IMG/VR virus record: IMGVR_UViG_3300025732_000018
Origin: a virus
Strand: one strand, 5' to 3'
DNA: 64,000 nt
The notes beneath the pieces were generated by a model, which did no database searches, was not told where the DNA came from, and worked only from the letters and a program-made list of their open reading frames with translations. Below, in pieces: positions 5,687-54,090 of this stretch; positions within the stretch are counted from its first letter, which is position 1; the number at the start of each line of letters is the position of its first letter. The translations under genes and the position numbers were made by a program.

Positions 5687-6384
5687 TTGAGTCAATTCAT
5701 AAGCACGGACTCTTCGCGATTCCAATCTACAAGTTAAAGTTCTCGCGACACGAGGAGCTCAAACAGCAGTTCATAGACTATATGGAGACTGAAGATGAGT
5801 GGTCTCTGACGACCGCGCCTACCCTTAACTTCACCGCCGCCAACCTTCACAAGGTCAAGCTGTTCGAGCCTTTCGTAGAGTTCGTCGAAGAGGGCCTGAG
5901 ACGCGTGATGGACGATCAAGGATACGTGCCGAGCGTTAAGGTCACTGGAATGTGGGGTACTAAGCATGACGACGGTGGGTTTCATCATCGACACACGCAT
6001 CACAACACGTTCCTGGCGGGAGTCTATTACCTACACGGAAACGAAAGCTGCTCGGGTACATCATTCTATAACGTGCACAGTTACCATTCCATAATTCATC
6101 CAGCAAGGCAGAGGGGAAGGTCACAGAACAGAAACTCTTTGAGTAGCCACACTGAAAGGTTCGAAGAGGGTACACTGATCATCTTTCCGGCCTGGCTCCC
6201 CCACGACACGGCCAGGAACAACATGCAGAGAACAAACACGACTCGGTACATCTTGTCGTTCAACTCCATGCCGGTAGGTTCAACCAACGTCGACATGTTT
6301 GATAGGTACGACTATCCAGATCCGTCTAAGATGAAACTAATTACGAAGCTAGACGACAAGTTCGACCATCGAAGAGGCAGTTGA
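5683..6384 (+). CDS. 2OG-Fe(II) oxygenase-like protein
   Basis: HxH..GVYY, LIIFPAWLPH and RYILSFN pattern. Confidence 0.8.
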   Translation: MIESIHKHGLFAIPIYKLKFSRHEELKQQFIDYMETEDEWSLTTAPTLNFTAANLHKVKLFEPFVEFVEEGLRRVMDDQGYVPSVKVTGMWGTKHDDGGFHHRHTHHNTFLAGVYYLHGNESCSGTSFYNVHSYHSIIHPARQRGRSQNRNSLSSHTERFEEGTLIIFPAWLPHDTARNNMQRTNTTRYILSFNSMPVGSTNVDMFDRYDYPDPSKMKLITKLDDKFDHRRGS

Positions 6385-6415
6385 CAAACTTACTCAACTG
6401 ACATATATTATACAC

Positions 6416-6643
6416 ATGGTCATGAAGTGGACCCGTCACAGGGACAATCTTGGTAATGCGTGGTACGAGGGCAGGGTCGCCGGGGCTCTAGAAGCTAGGG
6501 TCTGGCACGACCCTGCCAGTCGTCTAAACTATAAATGGTTATGTAGGATACGAAATCATGCGCCGTTCTCAAAAAGATCGGCTATTCTTTGTAAGAAAGA
6601 TGCGGATGCGATAGTTTCGACTTTCTATAACCCGCTATTGTGA
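6416..6643 (+). CDS. Hypothetical protein
   Basis: ORF directly after TTGACA-17-TATATT promoter at 6381. Confidence 0.55.
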   Translation: MVMKWTRHRDNLGNAWYEGRVAGALEARVWHDPASRLNYKWLCRIRNHAPFSKRSAILCKKDADAIVSTFYNPLL

Positions 6644-7598: not shown

Positions 7599-10094
7599 AT
7601 GTCCATCTACACGACCACCAAGAAAGCCACCCCTGAGATCGACTCCCTGATCCAGGCCTTCTCCGGTAAGATCACGGTCTGCCGTCCCGGCCGGAAGTTC
7701 AAGACCTTCCGCCAGCGTGGCACTTGGGAGGCCATGGCCGCCAAGAACGGCTGCGAGACCTTCGTTACCCAAGGTCAACGAAATTCTTCCTCCATGAACC
7801 GCTCTAGGGGTTGACATTATTTCCCAGACCGGCTATAATCATACTATGGAAAACAGGAACAAACAAGTGACTCGTCAACGTACATCTGACTACGCCTTTA
7901 CCACCACTAACCCTAACGACAGTCGGATTGCCGATCTCAAGCTGCACGCTCTCATCATGGGCATGGAGAACAAGATCATCGAGCTCAAGAATCCTGACGT
8001 CGCCAAGCGTAAGTTCAAGTCTCGCTACCGTGTGGTCGTCCGCGGCCGTCTCGGCAAGGACAATCCTAACGCTCACCTCTATCGAGTCGGCGGTCCCCTG
8101 AAGCGTAGCACGTCTCAGGACATCCGGCACGAGCATGCCCAGCGGTTCGACGTGTACCTCCGCGAGGTCCGCATCTACCGTTGACATAATTACTGGTACC
8201 TGATACTATCTGACTATAAACTGTGAAAACCTGAAAGGACTATATCATGAAGATCGAAATGTCGTTCGCGGACTTCTCCGCTGGTGTCTCCTCTGTCGGC
8301 CGTGCCTTCGAGCAGTCCAAGGCCATCTTCTACGTCAAGTGCCCCAAGGGTGGCAAGGTTGAGCTCAACCTGCACTCCGGCACCTTCACCGTAGGCTCCG
8401 GCTGCAAGCTCCGCGAGGTCATCACCGCGGCTGTCGAGAAGTCTGGCTTCAAGATCGCCAAGCGCGCCAAGGGTTGGACCGTGGTCTCGGCCGACGGCTA
8501 CGACCAGGGAGACCTGCTCGCTCACTTCTGCGCCCTCTACAAGGTCGTCGAGGGTGCGGTCGCCGCTTCCTCGGCCAAGGCCACCAAGGCCAAGGCAGTC
8601 GCCAAGGGCAAGCTCGAGCTCTCAGACATGCTGAACTCGGCCCTCGGCGGCAAGACTAAGTCGACGAAGTCAGTCAGCCGCAAGGCTGCCTGATGACCCT
8701 CTTTCGCGGAGTGCCGTCAGACGGCCCGTGTCATACCGCCAACTGCCAGCTGTGGGAGGTCTTCGTTGACCAGATCAAGAAGCGAACCGGCCGAGAGCCG
8801 TCCCACGGCTGGACAGAGGCGGAAGTCGTCCAGTGGCTCGACCTCGAGGGAGATCAAGTCCTTCACGGGGATGACCGAGGGCGGAGCCAACCGAATAGCG
8901 CGCTTCTACCAGCAGATGGGGAAGCGAGTGCTCGCGCGGCCTGAGTACAACCCAGAGACCACTCTCTGGGAGTTCGAGGTGGAGTGGTGAGATGTTCGTC
9001 TTCAAGGCGTCTCTCACCGTCCTACTGCTGATCTTCGTCCTGAGGCAGGCTCGAGAGCTGGCCATCGGGCCGGTAGAGGTCAGACTGATTCTTCGCTACG
9101 TCTCGATCGCTCTGTGGGCAGTGTTCGGCCTGCTGCTGGTGATCGGCGTCTGGACCGCATGAGGTAACAAATGAGACTCGCCAAGACACTCGCCTGCGTC
9201 GCATCCCTAGGACTGGGCGGCTGCGTAGTCGCCGCGGTGCCAGATCCATACGTCGGCCCGGTGGTCACCGGCGCGTACGTGTCGCCCGTCCCTCAAGTGA
9301 CAGTCGTCGGTGGTGGCTACTACCCGCCCGTCGCCCCTGTCGTATACGGCGCCTGGAGAGGACCGTACTACGGCGGTGGCTACTGGGGAGGGGGAGGCTA
9401 CTATGGCCCTCGTCCTGGATGGGGTCCTCGTCCCTACGGTCCTCCCGGCCCTCCAGGGCCTCGTCCAGGCCCCAGACCGGCCCCTAGACCTGGTCCAGGG
9501 CCATATCAAGGCCGCTAAGCCATTGACTTTCCTTATGAAAAAAACTTAAAAATAGTGGTTGACATTATTTCTTAAATAGACTACTATAAGAATATAAGGA
9601 ATGGATAGGAAAAACGACATGGCTACCGACTTCAACGAGCTCCTCAAGTTCATCGCCCAAGATGCCAACACCGACCAGATCAAGCAGATCGTCAACGCGG
9701 TCAACTTCCGCCGCGACATCTTGAACCGCCAGAACAAGTTCATGTTCAAGGTCGGCCAGAAGGTCTGCTTCACGAAGCGCGACGGAGTAGTAGAGACCGG
9801 CATGGTCCAGAAAGTCGCCATCAAGAAAGCTCAGGTCAAGGTCGGCAACACGCTGTGGACCGTTCCCTTCAACATGCTCAAGGCTGCTTAATCATGACGA
9901 ACGAAGAGATTGCACGTAACATCCGCTACAAGTTGTTCGCTGACCGCGACTCTATCAAAGAAGCCGTCGACTACGCGTTCGAGGTCTTCCGCAGGCTCGG
10001 TCCGGACGGTGAGATCGCCGCGACCACCGCTATGATGGTCGTCCTGAACACGCTCTCGAACAAGATCCTCGAGAACGAGGGTGTAAAATCGTGA
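7599..10094 (+). other. Early region I: small hypothetical ORFs (7599-7814, 7846-8184, 8247-8693, 8693-8944, 9619-9891, 9894-10094)
   Basis: Several preceded by TTGACA-17-TACTAT/TATAAT promoters (7811, 8181, 9559); SD sequences before several ORFs. Confidence 0.7.
9171..9518 (+). CDS. Putative Gly/Tyr/Pro-rich lipoprotein
   Basis: Signal peptide with lipobox LGGC, then YGG and PGPR repeats. Confidence 0.65.
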   Translation: MRLAKTLACVASLGLGGCVVAAVPDPYVGPVVTGAYVSPVPQVTVVGGGYYPPVAPVVYGAWRGPYYGGGYWGGGGYYGPRPGWGPRPYGPPGPPGPRPGPRPAPRPGPGPYQGR

Positions 10095-13586: not shown

Positions 13587-13799
13587 ATGTCTTTTGATCA
13601 TCTCATGGTCGAGCTCGGCTCGCGATACAAGTACAAGAACATCTTTCTCGTCTTAGACGAGCTGCAGCAGTTCATCAAGGAGGAGGGATACAAGTGCTCC
13701 CTCCTCCGTCCGTCTGACTACCACATCGACGTGGACGAGAACAGAGTAAGCGTGCTCATCAATACTAAGGATGAGATAACCGGATTCATGTTAGGATAG
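13587..13799 (+). CDS. Hypothetical protein
   Basis: SD AGGAGG, ATG at 13587. Confidence 0.6.
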   Translation: MSFDHLMVELGSRYKYKNIFLVLDELQQFIKEEGYKCSLLRPSDYHIDVDENRVSVLINTKDEITGFMLG

Positions 13800-13802
13800 A
13801 GA

Positions 13803-14243
13803 ATGGATCAACTAGTCGAAGACATGAAGAGGCTGCTGGCCACTACCTTTTCTTTCTACCTCAAGGCCCATAACTTTCACTGGAACGTAGAAGGTCAGAA
13901 CTTTCTTGATCTTCACGAGTTCTTTAAGGACATCTACGAGCAGGTGCACGGCGACGTTGACGCCATCGCTGAGGAGACTCGCGCGCTAGGATCGTATGTC
14001 CCTGGATCGTACTCACGATTCTCGGAGCTGACGGTGATTAACGATGAGACGTCAATCCCTGCGGCTTACGCGATGGTGGCTAAGCTGGCCTCTGACAACA
14101 CGACTCTGATGGCCATGCAGAAGAAGGCATACGCCTCGGCTGAGGCTGTCGGCGAGATGGGTCTGTCGAACTTCCTGCAGGACCTGTACGACAAGCATAA
14201 GAAGATGCAGTGGATGCTCACCTCCCTCAATAAGGGAGAGTGA
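13803..14243 (+). CDS. dps: Dps family ferritin-like protein
   Basis: KAHNFHWNVEG, LHEFF..IYE, D.IAE, K.QWML. Confidence 0.92.
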   Translation: MDQLVEDMKRLLATTFSFYLKAHNFHWNVEGQNFLDLHEFFKDIYEQVHGDVDAIAEETRALGSYVPGSYSRFSELTVINDETSIPAAYAMVAKLASDNTTLMAMQKKAYASAEAVGEMGLSNFLQDLYDKHKKMQWMLTSLNKGE

Positions 14244-14250
14244 GCTAGTT

Positions 14251-14342
14251 GGTGGGGTGGCCGAGAGGCTGAAGGCAGCGGTTTGCTAAATCGCCGTACC
14301 TGGAAACGGGTACCGTGGGTTCGAATCCCACTCCCACCGCCA
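14251..14342 (+). tRNA. tRNA-Ser(GCU)
   Basis: Long variable arm, G73, CCA. Confidence 0.93.
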
Positions 14343-14355
14343 GTTATAAATATAG

Positions 14356-14429
14356 CGCGGGATAGAGAAACGGTAACTCGGCAGGCTCATTACCTGCAGA
14401 TGATGGTTCAACTCCATCTCCCGCAACCA
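14356..14429 (+). tRNA. tRNA-fMet(CAU)-like
   Basis: C1:A72 mismatch, TTCAACT T-loop, CCA. Confidence 0.85.
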
Positions 14430-14431
14430 GG

Positions 14432-14505
14432 ATCGGTGAAGTGTTACGGTAGCACAGCGGTCTCCAAAACCGCGGGCGTAGGTTCGACTCCTACCACCGG
14501 TGCCA
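14432..14505 (+). tRNA. tRNA-Trp(CCA)
   Basis: CTCCAAA loop, G73, CCA. Confidence 0.9.
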
Positions 14506-14511
14506 TTCTTA

Positions 14512-14784
14512 TCAGTCGCGCGACGGCCAGAGTCCGTTGATGCAGATGATGAACGATGGCTCTCCGTTCTCGTAGCCGTAGTACTTGTTACCATGAGCGT
14601 CAGTCTTCCTCAAGTCAGGAAGCTTGAAGTTATGGACGCCATCTCCGCCGTAGTTATTTCCTAGCAGCGCGAACAGCGCTTGATTGTGGGAGATGTCTAA
14701 GGTTTGACCGGCGCAGAAGGCCCACTCTCTCGGTGGGAAGTTGCCGGCGAACATTCTAATTTCTGCTAAGTAGCCTTCCATCAT
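14512..14784 (-). CDS. Stand-alone tail-collar domain protein
   Basis: EIRMFAGNFPP.WAFC.GQ.L.I..NQALFALLG..YGGDG..NF.LPDLR. Confidence 0.88.
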   Translation of the reverse strand: MMEGYLAEIRMFAGNFPPREWAFCAGQTLDISHNQALFALLGNNYGGDGVHNFKLPDLRKTDAHGNKYYGYENGEPSFIICINGLWPSRD

Positions 14785-14839
14785 ATCTCTCCATGATGTT
14801 GGTGTGGGTGAACACAGTATTTATCACGTGAGAGTAGTC

Positions 14840-15331
14840 ATGCGAGTACACATCGGTAAGTATCCTAACAATCCAGACAAAGAGCGCAAGATCTCAGTCA
14901 AGATCGACAAGTGGGACACCTGGTCGATGGACCACACGCTCGCACTCATCATCCACCCCATGCTGGTCCAGCTCAAGGAAACTAAGCACGGCGGTCCTTA
15001 TGTCGACAACGAGGACGTACCGGAGGAGCTGTGGAACACCGACGAGCATGTAGATCCATACGCCTTAGACGATAAGTACTTTGACCGATGGGACTACGTT
15101 CTTGATGAGATGATCTTTACCTTCGAGAGCCTAACTAAAGACTGGGAGGGAGAGTACTTTATCTCTCACGGCGAGCACGAGTTCGTCGAGCACGACGACG
15201 GGTCCGGCAACGCCACCCTCAACTGGATCAAGAAGCCAGAGGTGGACCGTGAGGGTATGGAGGCCCACGGGGACCGGATCAAGAACGGCCTGAGGCTTTT
15301 CGGTAAGTATTATATGGCCCTCTGGGACTGA
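14840..15331 (+). CDS. Phage hypothetical protein
   Basis: DTWSMDHTLALII and GLRLFGKYYMALWD resemble T4-like phage hypotheticals. Confidence 0.75.
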   Translation: MRVHIGKYPNNPDKERKISVKIDKWDTWSMDHTLALIIHPMLVQLKETKHGGPYVDNEDVPEELWNTDEHVDPYALDDKYFDRWDYVLDEMIFTFESLTKDWEGEYFISHGEHEFVEHDDGSGNATLNWIKKPEVDREGMEAHGDRIKNGLRLFGKYYMALWD

Positions 15332-15342
15332 AAAAATAGTGG

Positions 15343-15378
15343 TTGACATTATTTCTAAGGTGGTTTATATTATAAATA
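15343..15378 (+). promoter_or_regulatory. Early promoter TTGACA-17-TATATT overlapped by late TATAAATA box
   Basis: TTGACA 15343, TATATT 15366, TATAAATA 15371. Confidence 0.8.
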
Positions 15379-15480
15379 ATGGCAATGACATATACACACG
15401 AGACTAGAATGAAGCCAACGACGAAGTCACACTTTAGGTCGATCCAGCCGCGAGTCAATTGCGGAGCTGCCGTCTCATGA
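15379..15480 (+). CDS. Putative attenuator leader peptide MAMTYTHETRMKPTTKSHFRSIQPRVNCGAAVS
   Basis: ATG at predicted +1; stop codon lies in the 5' arm of an antiterminator. Confidence 0.55.
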   Translation: MAMTYTHETRMKPTTKSHFRSIQPRVNCGAAVS

Positions 15481-15506
15481 CATGATCTAAACCAGATCAG
15501 AGTTCA

Positions 15507-15536
15507 AGAGGCGGGACCAAGAGTCCCGCTTTTTTT
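15507..15536 (+). terminator. Intrinsic terminator (candidate attenuator)
   Basis: GCGGGAC-caaga-GTCCCGC then T7. Confidence 0.88.
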
Positions 15537-15611
15537 ATGTTCAACAACAAGAAACTTTGTTGAACATATCGGTTGACAATATTCTCTAGGCGTGATAGAC
15601 TAACAATACAG

Positions 15612-15623
15612 GCTGTTTGAAAA
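15612..15623 (+). promoter_or_regulatory. boxA-like antitermination element
   Basis: GCTGTTTGAAAA between promoter 15573 and the first tRNA. Confidence 0.55.
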
Positions 15624-15633
15624 TAAACTAACT

Positions 15634-15706
15634 AGACTCCTGGCTCAACGGTGAGAGCGCCGGCCTTTTAAGCCGTGAGGTTCGGGTTCGAGTCCCGAGG
15701 AGTCTG
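15634..15706 (+). tRNA. tRNA-Lys(UUU), no encoded CCA
   Basis: AGACTCC/GGAGTCT acceptor, CTTTTAA loop. Confidence 0.85.
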
Positions 15707-15707
15707 C

Positions 15708-15782
15708 TGGCGCGTAGCTCAGCGGAAGAGCAAACGCTTGATAAGCGTTAGGTCGCTGGTTCAATCCCAGCCGCGCCAACCA
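15708..15782 (+). tRNA. tRNA-Ile(GAU)
   Basis: TTGATAA loop, CCA. Confidence 0.92.
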
Positions 15783-15787
15783 ATTAC

Positions 15788-15863
15788 GGACTGTTAGCTC
15801 AGTTGGTAGAGCAGGAGACTCTTAATCTCTTGGTCGTAGGTTCGAGTCCTGCACGGTCCACCA
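15788..15863 (+). tRNA. tRNA-Lys(CUU)
   Basis: CTCTTAA loop, CCA. Confidence 0.93.
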
Positions 15864-15868
15864 AATTC

Positions 15869-15945
15869 GCTCCGTTCGTCTAGCGGTCTAGGACACTGCC
15901 CTCTCAAGGCAGAGATCACGGGTTCAAATCCCGTACGGAGTACCA
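15869..15945 (+). tRNA. tRNA-Glu(CUC)
   Basis: GTCTAGCGGTCTAGGAC D-arm, CTCTCAA loop, CCA. Confidence 0.92.
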
Positions 15946-15951
15946 ATACGT

Positions 15952-16029
15952 TCGGCGGTAGCACTCTAGGTGAGCGCGCTCGGCTGTTAACCGAGAATGA
16001 GGTTGGTTCGAATCCAACCCGCCGAGCCA
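15952..16029 (+). tRNA. tRNA-Asn(GUU)
   Basis: CTGTTAA loop, G73, CCA. Confidence 0.9.
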
Positions 16030-16035
16030 AGTTTC

Positions 16036-16110
16036 GGGTGGTTAGCTCAGGGGTAGAGCGGCTGTTTTACACGCAGCGGGTCGGGAGTTCGATCCTCTCA
16101 CCACCCACCA
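16036..16110 (+). tRNA. tRNA-Val(UAC)
   Basis: TTTACAC loop, CCA. Confidence 0.92.
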
Positions 16111-16113
16111 TTA

Positions 16114-16275
16114 ATGTACCGTAAGACACAACGCTACTGAACCGATTGGTCGTCGGGTGTAGGGTAGCTGGAAGACTTACGCCTCTCTGCTTTGGAGATT
16201 GACCGCCAAAAGCACGTCGAGGAGGGCGCTGGTGCTGACCAGCAGGCAACCGTAGGAGATACGGATCAGCAACAT
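16114..16275 (+). ncRNA. Candidate structured ncRNA A
   Basis: Multiple nested helices plus a pseudoknot, followed by a T-run; no credible ORF. Confidence 0.55.
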
Positions 16276-16284
16276 TTTTTTTTT

Positions 16285-16368
16285 GGAGGATGGCGTGCAT
16301 GGTGCACACAGAGTCTTGAAAACTCCGCCACCGAAAGGTTGATGGTTCGATTCCTTCATCCTCCGCCA
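16285..16368 (+). tRNA. Atypical tRNA-Ser(UGA), possible 8/4 fold
   Basis: GGAGGATG/CATCCTCC, small D-loop, CTTGAAA loop, variable arm, G73-CCA. Confidence 0.8.
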
Positions 16369-16372
16369 ATTC

Positions 16373-16459
16373 GCTGGATTACTATAGAGACGGTGTCCTA
16401 GGTCTGTCTCTTGTGCTTACCAGTAGAGGAAGCCCGGAAACCTCTATAAACATACGGGT
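16373..16459 (+). ncRNA. Candidate ncRNA B with preQ1-like H-type pseudoknot
   Basis: TAGAGG/CCTCTA stem; loop GCCCG pairs with downstream CGGGT. Confidence 0.55.
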
Positions 16460-16467
16460 AGAATTTT

Positions 16468-16543
16468 GGGCTCTTAGCTCAGCTGGGAGAGCAGTAGCTT
16501 TGCAAGCTTCAGGTCGTCGGTTCGATCCCGACAGAGTCCACCA
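16468..16543 (+). tRNA. tRNA-Ala(UGC)
   Basis: G3:U70 pair, TTTGCAA loop, CCA. Confidence 0.93.
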
Positions 16544-52957: not shown

Positions 52958-53126
52958 GCCTATCATCAGGGTCGTAAAGAATGGAAAGAAGTACTCAGTC
53001 TATATCGGAAACAAGCTAATAGTGCTGACCGAGCAGCACACGATCGTAAAGAAGTATCTCGAGATAGAGGCCATGCTTCAAAAGAACGGTTGACATATTA
53101 AGCTAAGTGTTTTATAAATAAGGTAT

Positions 53127-53426
53127 GGTCAAGGTCGTTGAGACGTAAAGAATAGACGTTTCGGACGCGGGGGCAGTACCCGCCGCCTCCACCATGGATA
53201 CATCGAATAAGACCGCTGAGTCGTTCTGAACTGCTGGAGCCACATTTTGTGGGGCGTCGTAAGAGCGGTGTATCTTTGCTGGGGGCGAAACAGGATCGAC
53301 GTGCGTAGTAAAGGTGCGTGGAGACCGAAGACCGCTCTTAGGTGCAAACGATAACTTTGCCCCATCTTACGCTCTAGCAGCGTAAATGAGCTCGGGGGGA
53401 GCTTGGAAACAGAATCCCCCCACCCT
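53127..53426 (+). ncRNA. ssrA: Circularly permuted two-piece tmRNA, tag (A)NDNFAPSYALAA
   Basis: Acceptor piece ends CGCCTCCACCA (53194); coding piece starts GGGGGCGAAACAGGATCGAC (53281); tag 53344-53385. Confidence 0.93.
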
Positions 53427-53526
53427 TTCGACTTGAAATACACAGGCATGTAGTTTACTGTCCTACATTATCATCTAAAAGCTACCTATAAATTAAAACA
53501 AAAGCAGTAGCATCTAGGGATTATTA

Positions 53527-53844
53527 ATGTACGACCACGACTCGGCTTGGACAGTAATGAAGGTATATCTTCTCAGCGGCTTCATGGCCATGTTCGGCGC
53601 TCTCGCCCACGTGATATACGCAGTCAGGAACGGTAGAAAGTTCTCGTATACTTTCCTGTTCATAACACTCTTCTTTGGCTTCTTCGTGGGTAACCTCATA
53701 GGAAGCTTCCTTCCGAAGGACTTCGCCTATAGGGACGGGGTCCTCATGATAGCTGGGTTCGGGTGCTACCCGGTCCTAGAGTTCCTCGAGAAGAACATCC
53801 CAGAGATCTCGTCAAAGATAGTTGACAAGTTTATAGGAAAGTGA
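53527..53844 (+). CDS. Holin-like 3-TM protein
   Basis: Hydrophobic segments, charged C-terminus. Confidence 0.6.
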   Translation: MYDHDSAWTVMKVYLLSGFMAMFGALAHVIYAVRNGRKFSYTFLFITLFFGFFVGNLIGSFLPKDFAYRDGVLMIAGFGCYPVLEFLEKNIPEISSKIVDKFIGK

Positions 53845-53856
53845 TAGAGTTACAAT

Positions 53857-54090
53857 ATGAAGATAAACTCTGTACGTCAGCCGACCGACTTCTTCATGGA
53901 GATCGAGACGCTGGTTAGTGAATATAACGTTAACTACCTCGACGCCATCCTCCTCTACGTCGAGAAGAATAACCTTGAGGTCGAGTCAGTCGCGACCCTA
54001 GTCAAGAAACATCCTGCCATAAAGTCAAAGCTACAGAAAGACTGCGAGGGACTTCGCCTCGTGGAGAAGACAGCCCGCCTTCCTATCTGA
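53857..54090 (+). CDS. 33: Late transcription coactivator gp33
   Basis: F..EIE.LV.....YLDAI..Y......E..V; upstream of 59 and 32. Confidence 0.85.
   Translation: MKINSVRQPTDFFMEIETLVSEYNVNYLDAILLYVEKNNLEVESVATLVKKHPAIKSKLQKDCEGLRLVEKTARLPI

Follow-up and report, generated by a model that had tools for sequence, protein, structure and literature searches.

A putative leader-peptide attenuator ahead of the tRNA array of a large uncultured phage

Attenuation by means of a leader ORF is otherwise known only from amino-acid, synthetase and drug-resistance operons, and within these several variations have been described. Leaderless leader peptides are already known from attenuators (PMC7298713, PMC4007540), as in the leaderless trpL attenuator of the alphaproteobacterium Sinorhizobium meliloti (PMC7298713), and the distance between stop codon and terminator affects termination (PMC4824070). 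Moreover, some attenuators sense translation rate without codon runs (PMC4191407, PMC4335068), among them the bmrB leader of the Bacillus subtilis bmrB-bmrCD operon, which does so without runs of amino-acid-specific codons (PMC4191407). A search of the full-text literature found no report of a leader-ORF attenuator placed before tRNA genes. Large phages often carry many tRNA genes, the control of whose expression is almost unknown, and recent work connects these tRNAs with codon supply as well as with the evasion of host defences that cleave tRNA.

Here we describe a self-contained element of about 200 nt, with a conserved gene on its 5' side and the main tRNA block on its 3' side, in a 64,000-nt stretch of viral DNA (IMG/VR record IMGVR_UViG_3300025732_000018; hereafter, the window). 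An earlier note on this DNA had recognized a promoter, an ATG, a short ORF, two pairing arms, a terminator and a second promoter, all of which are present at the coordinates it gave, and had read them as a ribosome-dependent attenuator gating the tRNA array. The arrangement typical of an attenuator is indeed there and has been kept in two clades, and we put the probability that the element works as a ribosome-mediated transcription attenuator of the leader-peptide type at about 0.5, judging from comparative sequence analysis and modelled folds.

Genomic setting and conservation of the element

The window represents what we take to be an uncultured, large, T4-like phage. It holds 27 tRNA genes and a permuted tmRNA, and it encodes an NrdA about 60% identical to known phage NrdA as well as a gp33-like late-transcription factor; UvsX, DnaB and a family-B DNA polymerase are encoded by its relatives. 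No close cultured relative was found, as blastn against cultured phages returned tRNA matches only. The tmRNA, of the two-piece type, is located at 53098-53476 and carries the tag ANDNFAPSYALAA, and in the distant relatives L018, L020 and L027 the tmRNA tag is ANDERFALAA. The permuted type suggests that the host is, presumably, an alphaproteobacterium. The features that delimit the element are the following.

14804-15331: conserved upstream gene (phrog_11543, function not assigned), the 5' neighbour of the element
15343-15371, plus strand: promoter P1, sigma-70 type, TTGACA (15343-15348), 17-nt spacer, TATATT (15366-15371)
15573-15601, plus strand: promoter P2, TTGACA (15573), 17-nt spacer, TAGACT, TG extension
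15634-16543, plus strand: first tRNA block (Lys, Ile, Lys, Glu, Asn, Val, Ser, Ala), starting with tRNA-Lys

P1 matches the consensus at 11 of 12 positions, is the best promoter-like site between 12 and 26 kb, and is kept in all seven variants of the element described below, with TATTAT and TACTAT as variants of the -10 hexamer. P1 and P2 both belong to a phage-wide promoter family, GTTGACAnnATT, which has 17 sites in comparison with 2.9 expected, and P1 is, by its motif, a member of the early promoter family of the phage. The first tRNA block, whose layout is the same in the sister phage, is the only possible target of read-through from the element.

Relatives were retrieved by searching for proteins like that of the upstream gene and then looking up their contigs. 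They include near relatives (L081, L082 and L083-L088) and a sister clade (L092, L102 and L098-L101), in which the upstream protein is about 59% identical to that of the window and where the L098-L101 contigs, up to 157 kb long, have the same gene order and a tRNA array. Across these two clades the element occurs as seven distinct variants, one copy per genome, always located between the same upstream gene and P2 plus tRNA-Lys. It is absent from relatives carrying the upstream gene at 45-59% identity (L001-L080, L089, L093-L097); in L044 a simple promoter stands ahead of the tRNAs. A second copy was not found by nhmmer in the window or the sister phage, DNA-pattern scans of viral contigs gave no match to the element, and a metagenome scan returned only a duplicate of L085. 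L081-L088 are near-identical mosaics whose flanks match the window at 100% identity; little can be read from their conservation, which was dropped as evidence of constraint, and the sister clade is the informative comparison.

The surroundings of the upstream gene show two further traits. The flanks at 13587-14784 are 99-100% identical to L083/L084 and the 175-codon gene at 14804-15331 only 79%, a low-identity stretch that, from these identities, reads as a sharply bounded recombination patch ending near the 5' part of the leader. A 90-codon minus-strand ORF at 14512-14784, in which a tail-collar domain (PF07484) is called in all relatives, is the lone minus-strand gene within the tRNA region. 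A minus-strand gene at the element itself was considered and dropped, there being only a 59-codon ORF that overlaps the end of the upstream gene.

The leader ORF and its start

We then focused on the short ORF downstream of P1, for which three features matter.

15379-15408, plus strand: first part of the P1 transcript, opening with two ATGs in frame (15379, 15385); probably 5' UTR, or an optional leaderless N-terminal extension
15400-15403, plus strand: purine motif resembling a Shine-Dalgarno sequence, reading GAGA here, GGGA in L081 and AGGA in the sister clade
15409-15480, plus strand: leader ORF of 23 codons plus UGA (33 codons if counted from 15379), open in seven of seven variants

The 33-codon ORF that starts at ATG 15379 ends with the TGA at 15478-15480 and had been described earlier as leaderless. 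This ATG is located 8 nt past the -10 hexamer of P1, and leaderless genes are likely in this phage. What speaks against a leaderless start here is that the first ten codons appear unconstrained, their substitutions being almost all non-synonymous and the sister clade having a 3-nt deletion there, and that a Shine-Dalgarno-like motif precedes the conserved ATG 15409 by 5-6 nt; AGGA with a 6-nt spacing is also the motif seen before real genes of the window. Taking these observations together, we regard a 23-codon, Shine-Dalgarno-led ORF with its main start at 15409 as more likely than a leaderless 33-codon ORF. Since the phage seems to have leaderless genes, a second, leaderless start at 15379 is possible. 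Elsewhere in the window, three promoters of the GTTGACAnnATT family have an ATG exactly 7 nt after the -10 hexamer and lack a Shine-Dalgarno sequence (6380-6643, 7810-8184 and 53821-54090). They open ORFs of 75, 112 and 77 codons, respectively, the last of which matches the PHROG 'late promoter transcriptional regulator' (that is, gp33-like), and all three are probable leaderless mRNAs in a T4-like phage.

Several observations point to translation of the leader ORF. Its UGA is found at the same structural position upstream of the tRNAs in all seven variants, a conservation that the earlier note had proposed looking for, and frames 2 and 3 hold two to three stops; base composition by itself would leave a frame open with a probability of 0.15-0.23 per variant. 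For the last 23 codons, pN/pS between the window clade and L092/L102 is 0.33-0.39 in the ORF frame and 1.05-3.8 in the other two frames (Fisher p 0.004-0.04). In L099 the synonymous excess is weak and non-significant, because its middle codons are replaced. In addition, the ORF frame is preserved across the 3-nt deletion and, apparently, across +4/-4 indels in L099, where ACAC is inserted and 4 nt are lost around a shared TCGATCC, a reading obtained by visual comparison, as the alignments themselves place no gaps there.

Some purifying selection on the peptide fits a functional small protein equally well, and this brings in an alternative that we find rather unlikely, namely that the element is an autonomous small gene: the P1 mRNA, ended by its own terminator, would encode a basic peptide of 23-33 residues or act as a small RNA. 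The hairpin over the stop codon would then serve RNA stability or processing, for instance as an RNase III-type site splitting the mRNA from the tRNA precursors, and its overlap with the terminator would have no regulatory purpose. Promoter, ORF and terminator do form a complete unit, with P2 opening a new one straight after, and RNase III sites are known in phage early transcripts, which the hairpin, with 16-18 pairs and internal loops, resembles. Attenuator RNAs and leader peptides can, moreover, act in trans (PMC7298713), in line with such a gene. Nevertheless, the central residues of the peptide are replaced in L099 while its N-terminal part is unconstrained, the leader peptide has no match in Pfam or PHROGs, and the ORF is not among the genes called on the contigs of relatives, all of which weighs against such a gene; the folds bear on this alternative as well (see below).

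The codon content of the ORF was the basis of a further earlier claim, that of a general tRNA-pool sensor built from special codons. This could not be upheld, as the ORF resembles ordinary stretches of the phage's genes in every respect examined. Its 17 residue types, without runs, compare with 14.5% of 33-codon gene windows having at least 17; 20 of its 33 codons are exactly cognate to phage tRNAs (gene-window mean 18.2, sd 3.2); and its codon adaptation (0.66 vs 0.73 for genes) is within the range of ordinary 33-codon windows. The emphasis placed on AGA, AGG and GGA was overstated, given that the phage uses these codons commonly in its genes (relative use 0.75-0.86). The ORF shows neither an enrichment for the amino acids that the adjacent tRNAs carry nor a codon match to that block, and the L099 variant has fewer cognate codons, the variable middle differing among variants. 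Codon matching to the adjacent block or to the phage tRNAs was therefore dropped, and the lack of a regulatory codon run, or of a codon or amino-acid match to the downstream tRNAs, has to be counted against attenuation.

Competing folds over the stop codon

The RNA structures considered here are located in the second half of the leader.

15448-15464, plus strand: hairpin located within the ORF, with the stem CCGCGA/UUGCGG; candidate pause signal for RNA polymerase
15470-15514, plus strand: antiterminator, a long hairpin whose 5' strand consists of the last three sense codons plus UGA
15483-15499, plus strand: apical stem-loop of the antiterminator, TGATCT (15483-15488) / AGATCA (15494-15499), loop AAACC
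15506-15536, plus strand: intrinsic terminator, core GCGGGAC/GUCCCGC (15511-15529), loop CAAGA, U7

The antiterminator has 16-18 pairs and is made up of the basal helix CCGYCUC/GAGGCGG, the helix UGA(C)/(G)UCA with the stop codon in it, and the apical stem-loop. In the window, CCGTCTCATGA (15470-15480) pairs with TCAAGAGGCGG (15504-15514) at 10 of 11 positions, with one G-U pair and one A-A mismatch. The terminator, with arms at 15511-15517 and 15523-15529 followed by T7 at 15530-15536, extends to 12 pairs (15506-15534) and is the only strong plus-strand terminator between 12 and 26 kb. As bases 15511-15514 are common to both folds (15506-15514 when A/G-U extension pairs are counted), these are mutually exclusive, in agreement with the earlier proposal. 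The overlap between ORF end and antiterminator is conserved too, the stop codon lying in the 5' strand of the antiterminator in all seven variants.

Calculated stabilities of the antiterminator are -18.7 kcal/mol in the window, -20.6 to -22.3 kcal/mol in the near relatives, -24.6 kcal/mol in L092 and -28.0 kcal/mol in L099, and those of the terminator range from -16.3 to -18.0 kcal/mol. Six of the seven variants have a hairpin whose stability exceeds that of the overlapping terminator, an arrangement that sits poorly with an autonomous gene relying on that terminator. The window's antiterminator is 0.8 kcal/mol more stable in isolation, yet loses in the whole-leader fold. In transcripts ending at 15514-15522, before the 3' arm of the terminator exists, the antiterminator is part of the minimum-energy fold. 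In folds of whole leaders, the terminator state is lower than the antiterminator state by only 2.8-6.6 kcal/mol, and the minimum-energy fold retains the antiterminator in five of the six variants folded whole.

Pairing of this kind could be a by-product of C-rich coding sequence beside a G-rich arm, in which case the locus would consist of a plain terminator for the upstream operon and an unrelated strong promoter. Shuffled controls lend this some plausibility, given that in 78% of them 4 nt or more of the terminator arm find a pairing partner upstream, and the near-identity of the L081-L088 mosaics means that their conservation says little against it. However, the helix is far stronger than such incidental pairing: the 3' arm of the alternative helix adds -12.1 kcal/mol in the window, a value matched by 0.8% of 1000 dinucleotide shuffles, and an equally strong helix was seen in 0 of 500 shuffles for both L092 and L099. 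Furthermore, the helix is kept in the sister clade, where the apical stem has been re-made with a different sequence and loop in the same place and still pairs, and where the A-A mismatch becomes a single bulge with the basal helices kept. The third positions of the last codons (GCC GCC UCA) are invariant, with many synonymous changes upstream, which points to a constraint on the RNA arm and is not expected of a by-product. Altogether, we consider the plain-terminator explanation improbable.

Nine substitutions among the near relatives were examined. The four that affect paired positions (one in the antiterminator, two in the apical stem as U-G, one in the terminator) preserve pairing via wobble, and the five others are located in loops. 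Every close variant is 100% compatible with both folds, which the sister clade also retains. Position 15473 is U in the window and C in all relatives, giving G-U in place of G-C. The terminator is kept in all variants: its top pair is U-G in L081; the top pair is lost and a basal G-C gained in L092 and L102; and L099 has both a U-G top pair and the gained basal G-C. The earlier note had also proposed a search for covariation; no two-sided covariation was found in the basal helices, whose arms are nearly invariant and hardly leave room for it.

Upstream of these folds, the hairpin at 15448-15464 has five of its six stem pairs invariant in the seven variants; L092/L102 lose the A-U pair closing the loop and differ in loop sequence. 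It is located where a pause hairpin would synchronize ribosome and polymerase, a role it may have, and it does not sequester the antiterminator arm. Other structures were considered and dropped: a GAGAC:GUCUC pairing of the window's minimum-energy fold, taken as an anti-antiterminator, is lost in all relatives; the hairpin at 15419-15441 of the same fold is not kept in relatives; and for a tRNA-like or T-arm remnant in 15495-15515 the stems are unpaired, with ARAGORN and Rfam silent. Rfam, including T-box, riboswitch and known leader families, gave no match in 15332-15633 at E up to 1, its only matches being to tRNAs.

To describe the competition between the folds, we used a thermodynamic switch model in which the last 8 nt are held in the RNA-DNA hybrid and a ribosome is represented by a masked footprint of 30 nt, applied to all seven variants. 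With no ribosome, or with the A site 10-15 codons before the stop, the modelled probability of the antiterminator is 0.70-1.00 and that of the terminator core 0.00-0.57; once the A site has come to the stop or to 5 codons upstream of it, the antiterminator falls to 0 and the terminator core reaches 0.22-0.83. In the model, the antiterminator would thus win over the terminator unless a ribosome covers the last five or so codons or the stop, the outcome obtained when the earlier suggestion of folding both states was followed. For an autonomous gene this would be awkward, as a terminator that seldom forms unless the 5' strand of the hairpin is masked makes a poor constitutive terminator.

Two properties of the switch deserve attention. 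By estimate, the strand exchange through which the terminator replaces the antiterminator has a barrier of only 4-12 kcal/mol, so the switch may leak, and most so in the window's own variant, which has U at 15473 and the lowest barrier. In addition, the stop context UGAC is a slow termination signal in E. coli; a slow stop would prolong masking, but the same bases are also constrained by pairing. Finally, as no anti-antiterminator is conserved, the default without translation would be read-through, unlike in trp.

The second promoter, a proposed mechanism and comparison with known systems

Downstream of the terminator, the tRNA array is preceded by P2 and by two further sequence features.

15536-15568, no strand assigned: perfect 12-bp inverted repeat, TATGTTCAACAA, 9-nt spacer, TTGTTGAACATA, between the terminator and the -35 hexamer of P2
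15612-15623: boxA-like sequence GCTGTTTGAAAA, just past the predicted P2 start

P2 is conserved in L081-L088, L099 and L102, that is, in every variant that reaches it. The distance from terminator to P2 is 37 nt in the window, and in L102 the -35 hexamer of P2 begins 5 nt past the U tract. P2, which shares its family with P1, is the predicted promoter of the tRNA array itself, a good one by its sequence, and would bypass the switch, as the earlier note had cautioned of a second promoter at 15573. Because P2 is conserved and follows closely after the terminator, the tRNAs do not depend on read-through, and an array with its own promoter leaves the switch only the possibility of adding to or modulating expression. 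The word 'gating' in the earlier description consequently has to be given up.

The inverted repeat is unique in the window, has one mismatch in L099 and is missing in L102, which accounts for the short distance to P2 there, and is evidently dispensable; it could serve as an operator or form a second hairpin, and probably does not belong to the switch. The boxA-like sequence is conserved as GYTGTTTGAAAT in L082, L099 and L102 despite variable flanks, and a boxA-like GCTGTTTGAAA follows P2 in all variants, which suggests Nus-type antitermination of the largely untranslated tRNA transcript and makes P2 probably antitermination-proficient. At L082:885-1084, an additional stretch of some 120 nt, structured-looking by eye, comes after P2, with tRNA-Phe(GAA) and then tRNA-Lys behind it; tRNA-Phe was not found in the window.

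With Nus-type antitermination possibly operating nearby, the choice between the folds could also be made by a factor. Elements in which a factor selects between folds are known (RAT/BglG-type, nut/put-type), and here an RNA-binding protein of phage or host, or a trans-acting RNA or tRNA, would bind the hairpin, the ORF being incidental. Such a site would account for two conserved competing folds and for the conserved internal loops or bulge beside the UGAC/GUCA helix. On the other hand, the apical loop and stem, the usual parts for protein recognition, are the least conserved, the element has no Rfam family match, and both the maintenance of the ORF and its frame-specific synonymous bias would be left unexplained. 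For these reasons we think that a factor-dependent site has a slim chance of being the correct explanation.

Ribosome-mediated attenuation would operate as follows. P1, together with transcription arriving from upstream genes, would produce an RNA with a short ORF, most likely started at ATG 15409 and perhaps also at the 5'-terminal AUG. The last sense codons and the UGA would form the 5' strand of the antiterminator, whose 3' strand is the 5' half of the terminator. Were a ribosome to stand on the last five or so codons or on the stop when the polymerase meets the U tract, the antiterminator would be blocked, the terminator would fold, and the transcript would end at about 15536. A ribosome that lags, stalls further upstream or never loads would let the antiterminator form first, with read-through past P2 into the tRNAs. 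Slow translation from whatever cause would therefore mean more read-through, adding P1 output on top of the basal level from P2, and such a sensor would be generic, with no tuning to particular codons. The analysis shows the sequence features, how they are conserved, signs that the ORF is translated and the energetics of both folds; where the ORF starts, how ribosome and polymerase are coupled, whether there is a pause and the entire regulatory outcome are inferred.

What such a switch might sense is more tentative. A possible, though doubtful, role is that of a sensor of translation capacity, in which slow ribosomes on a test ORF would bring P1 read-through into the main tRNA array on demand. 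The level from P2 would be constitutive, P1 transcription would otherwise stop after about 158 nt, and the slowing might be caused by starvation, translation inhibitors or host tRNA-cleaving defences; that starvation or defence nucleases in particular elicit a response is conjecture. If true, a leader-ORF switch would establish a feedback loop between translation capacity and tRNA supply.

Comparison with described systems places the element among attenuators. In lambda pR'-tR', a short 6S transcript is extended when Q antiterminates, and the element shares with it a strong promoter, a short terminated RNA unless termination is overcome, and a long downstream unit; however, lambda uses a protein that modifies RNA polymerase, and the element has competing RNA folds and an ORF, with no Q-like factor or site identified at this locus. 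With the classical attenuators trpL, hisL, leuL, thrL and pheL, it has in common a mini-ORF close to the promoter, antiterminator and terminator hairpins that exclude each other, a ribosome at the ORF end that would mask the 5' strand of the antiterminator (here from geometry and model), and a short RNA released on termination (here predicted). It differs from them in lacking a codon run for a single amino acid and a conserved 1:2 anti-antiterminator, with read-through as the default, in having phage tRNAs downstream instead of biosynthetic genes and a second promoter after the terminator, and in matching no Rfam leader family. The modelled logic, termination dependent on translation, would be nearer to bmrB-type leaders than to trp (PMC4191407). 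As in bmrB-bmrCD (PMC4191407) and mef/mel (PMC4335068), a leader ORF without amino-acid-specific codons is combined with alternative stem-loops that control a terminator, and read-through rises when leader translation slows (for the element, in the model); in bmrB, general codon composition tunes the basal read-through. Both of these systems control drug-efflux or resistance genes in Firmicutes and have the terminator within or at the end of the leader ORF, whereas the target of the element described here would be a phage tRNA array.
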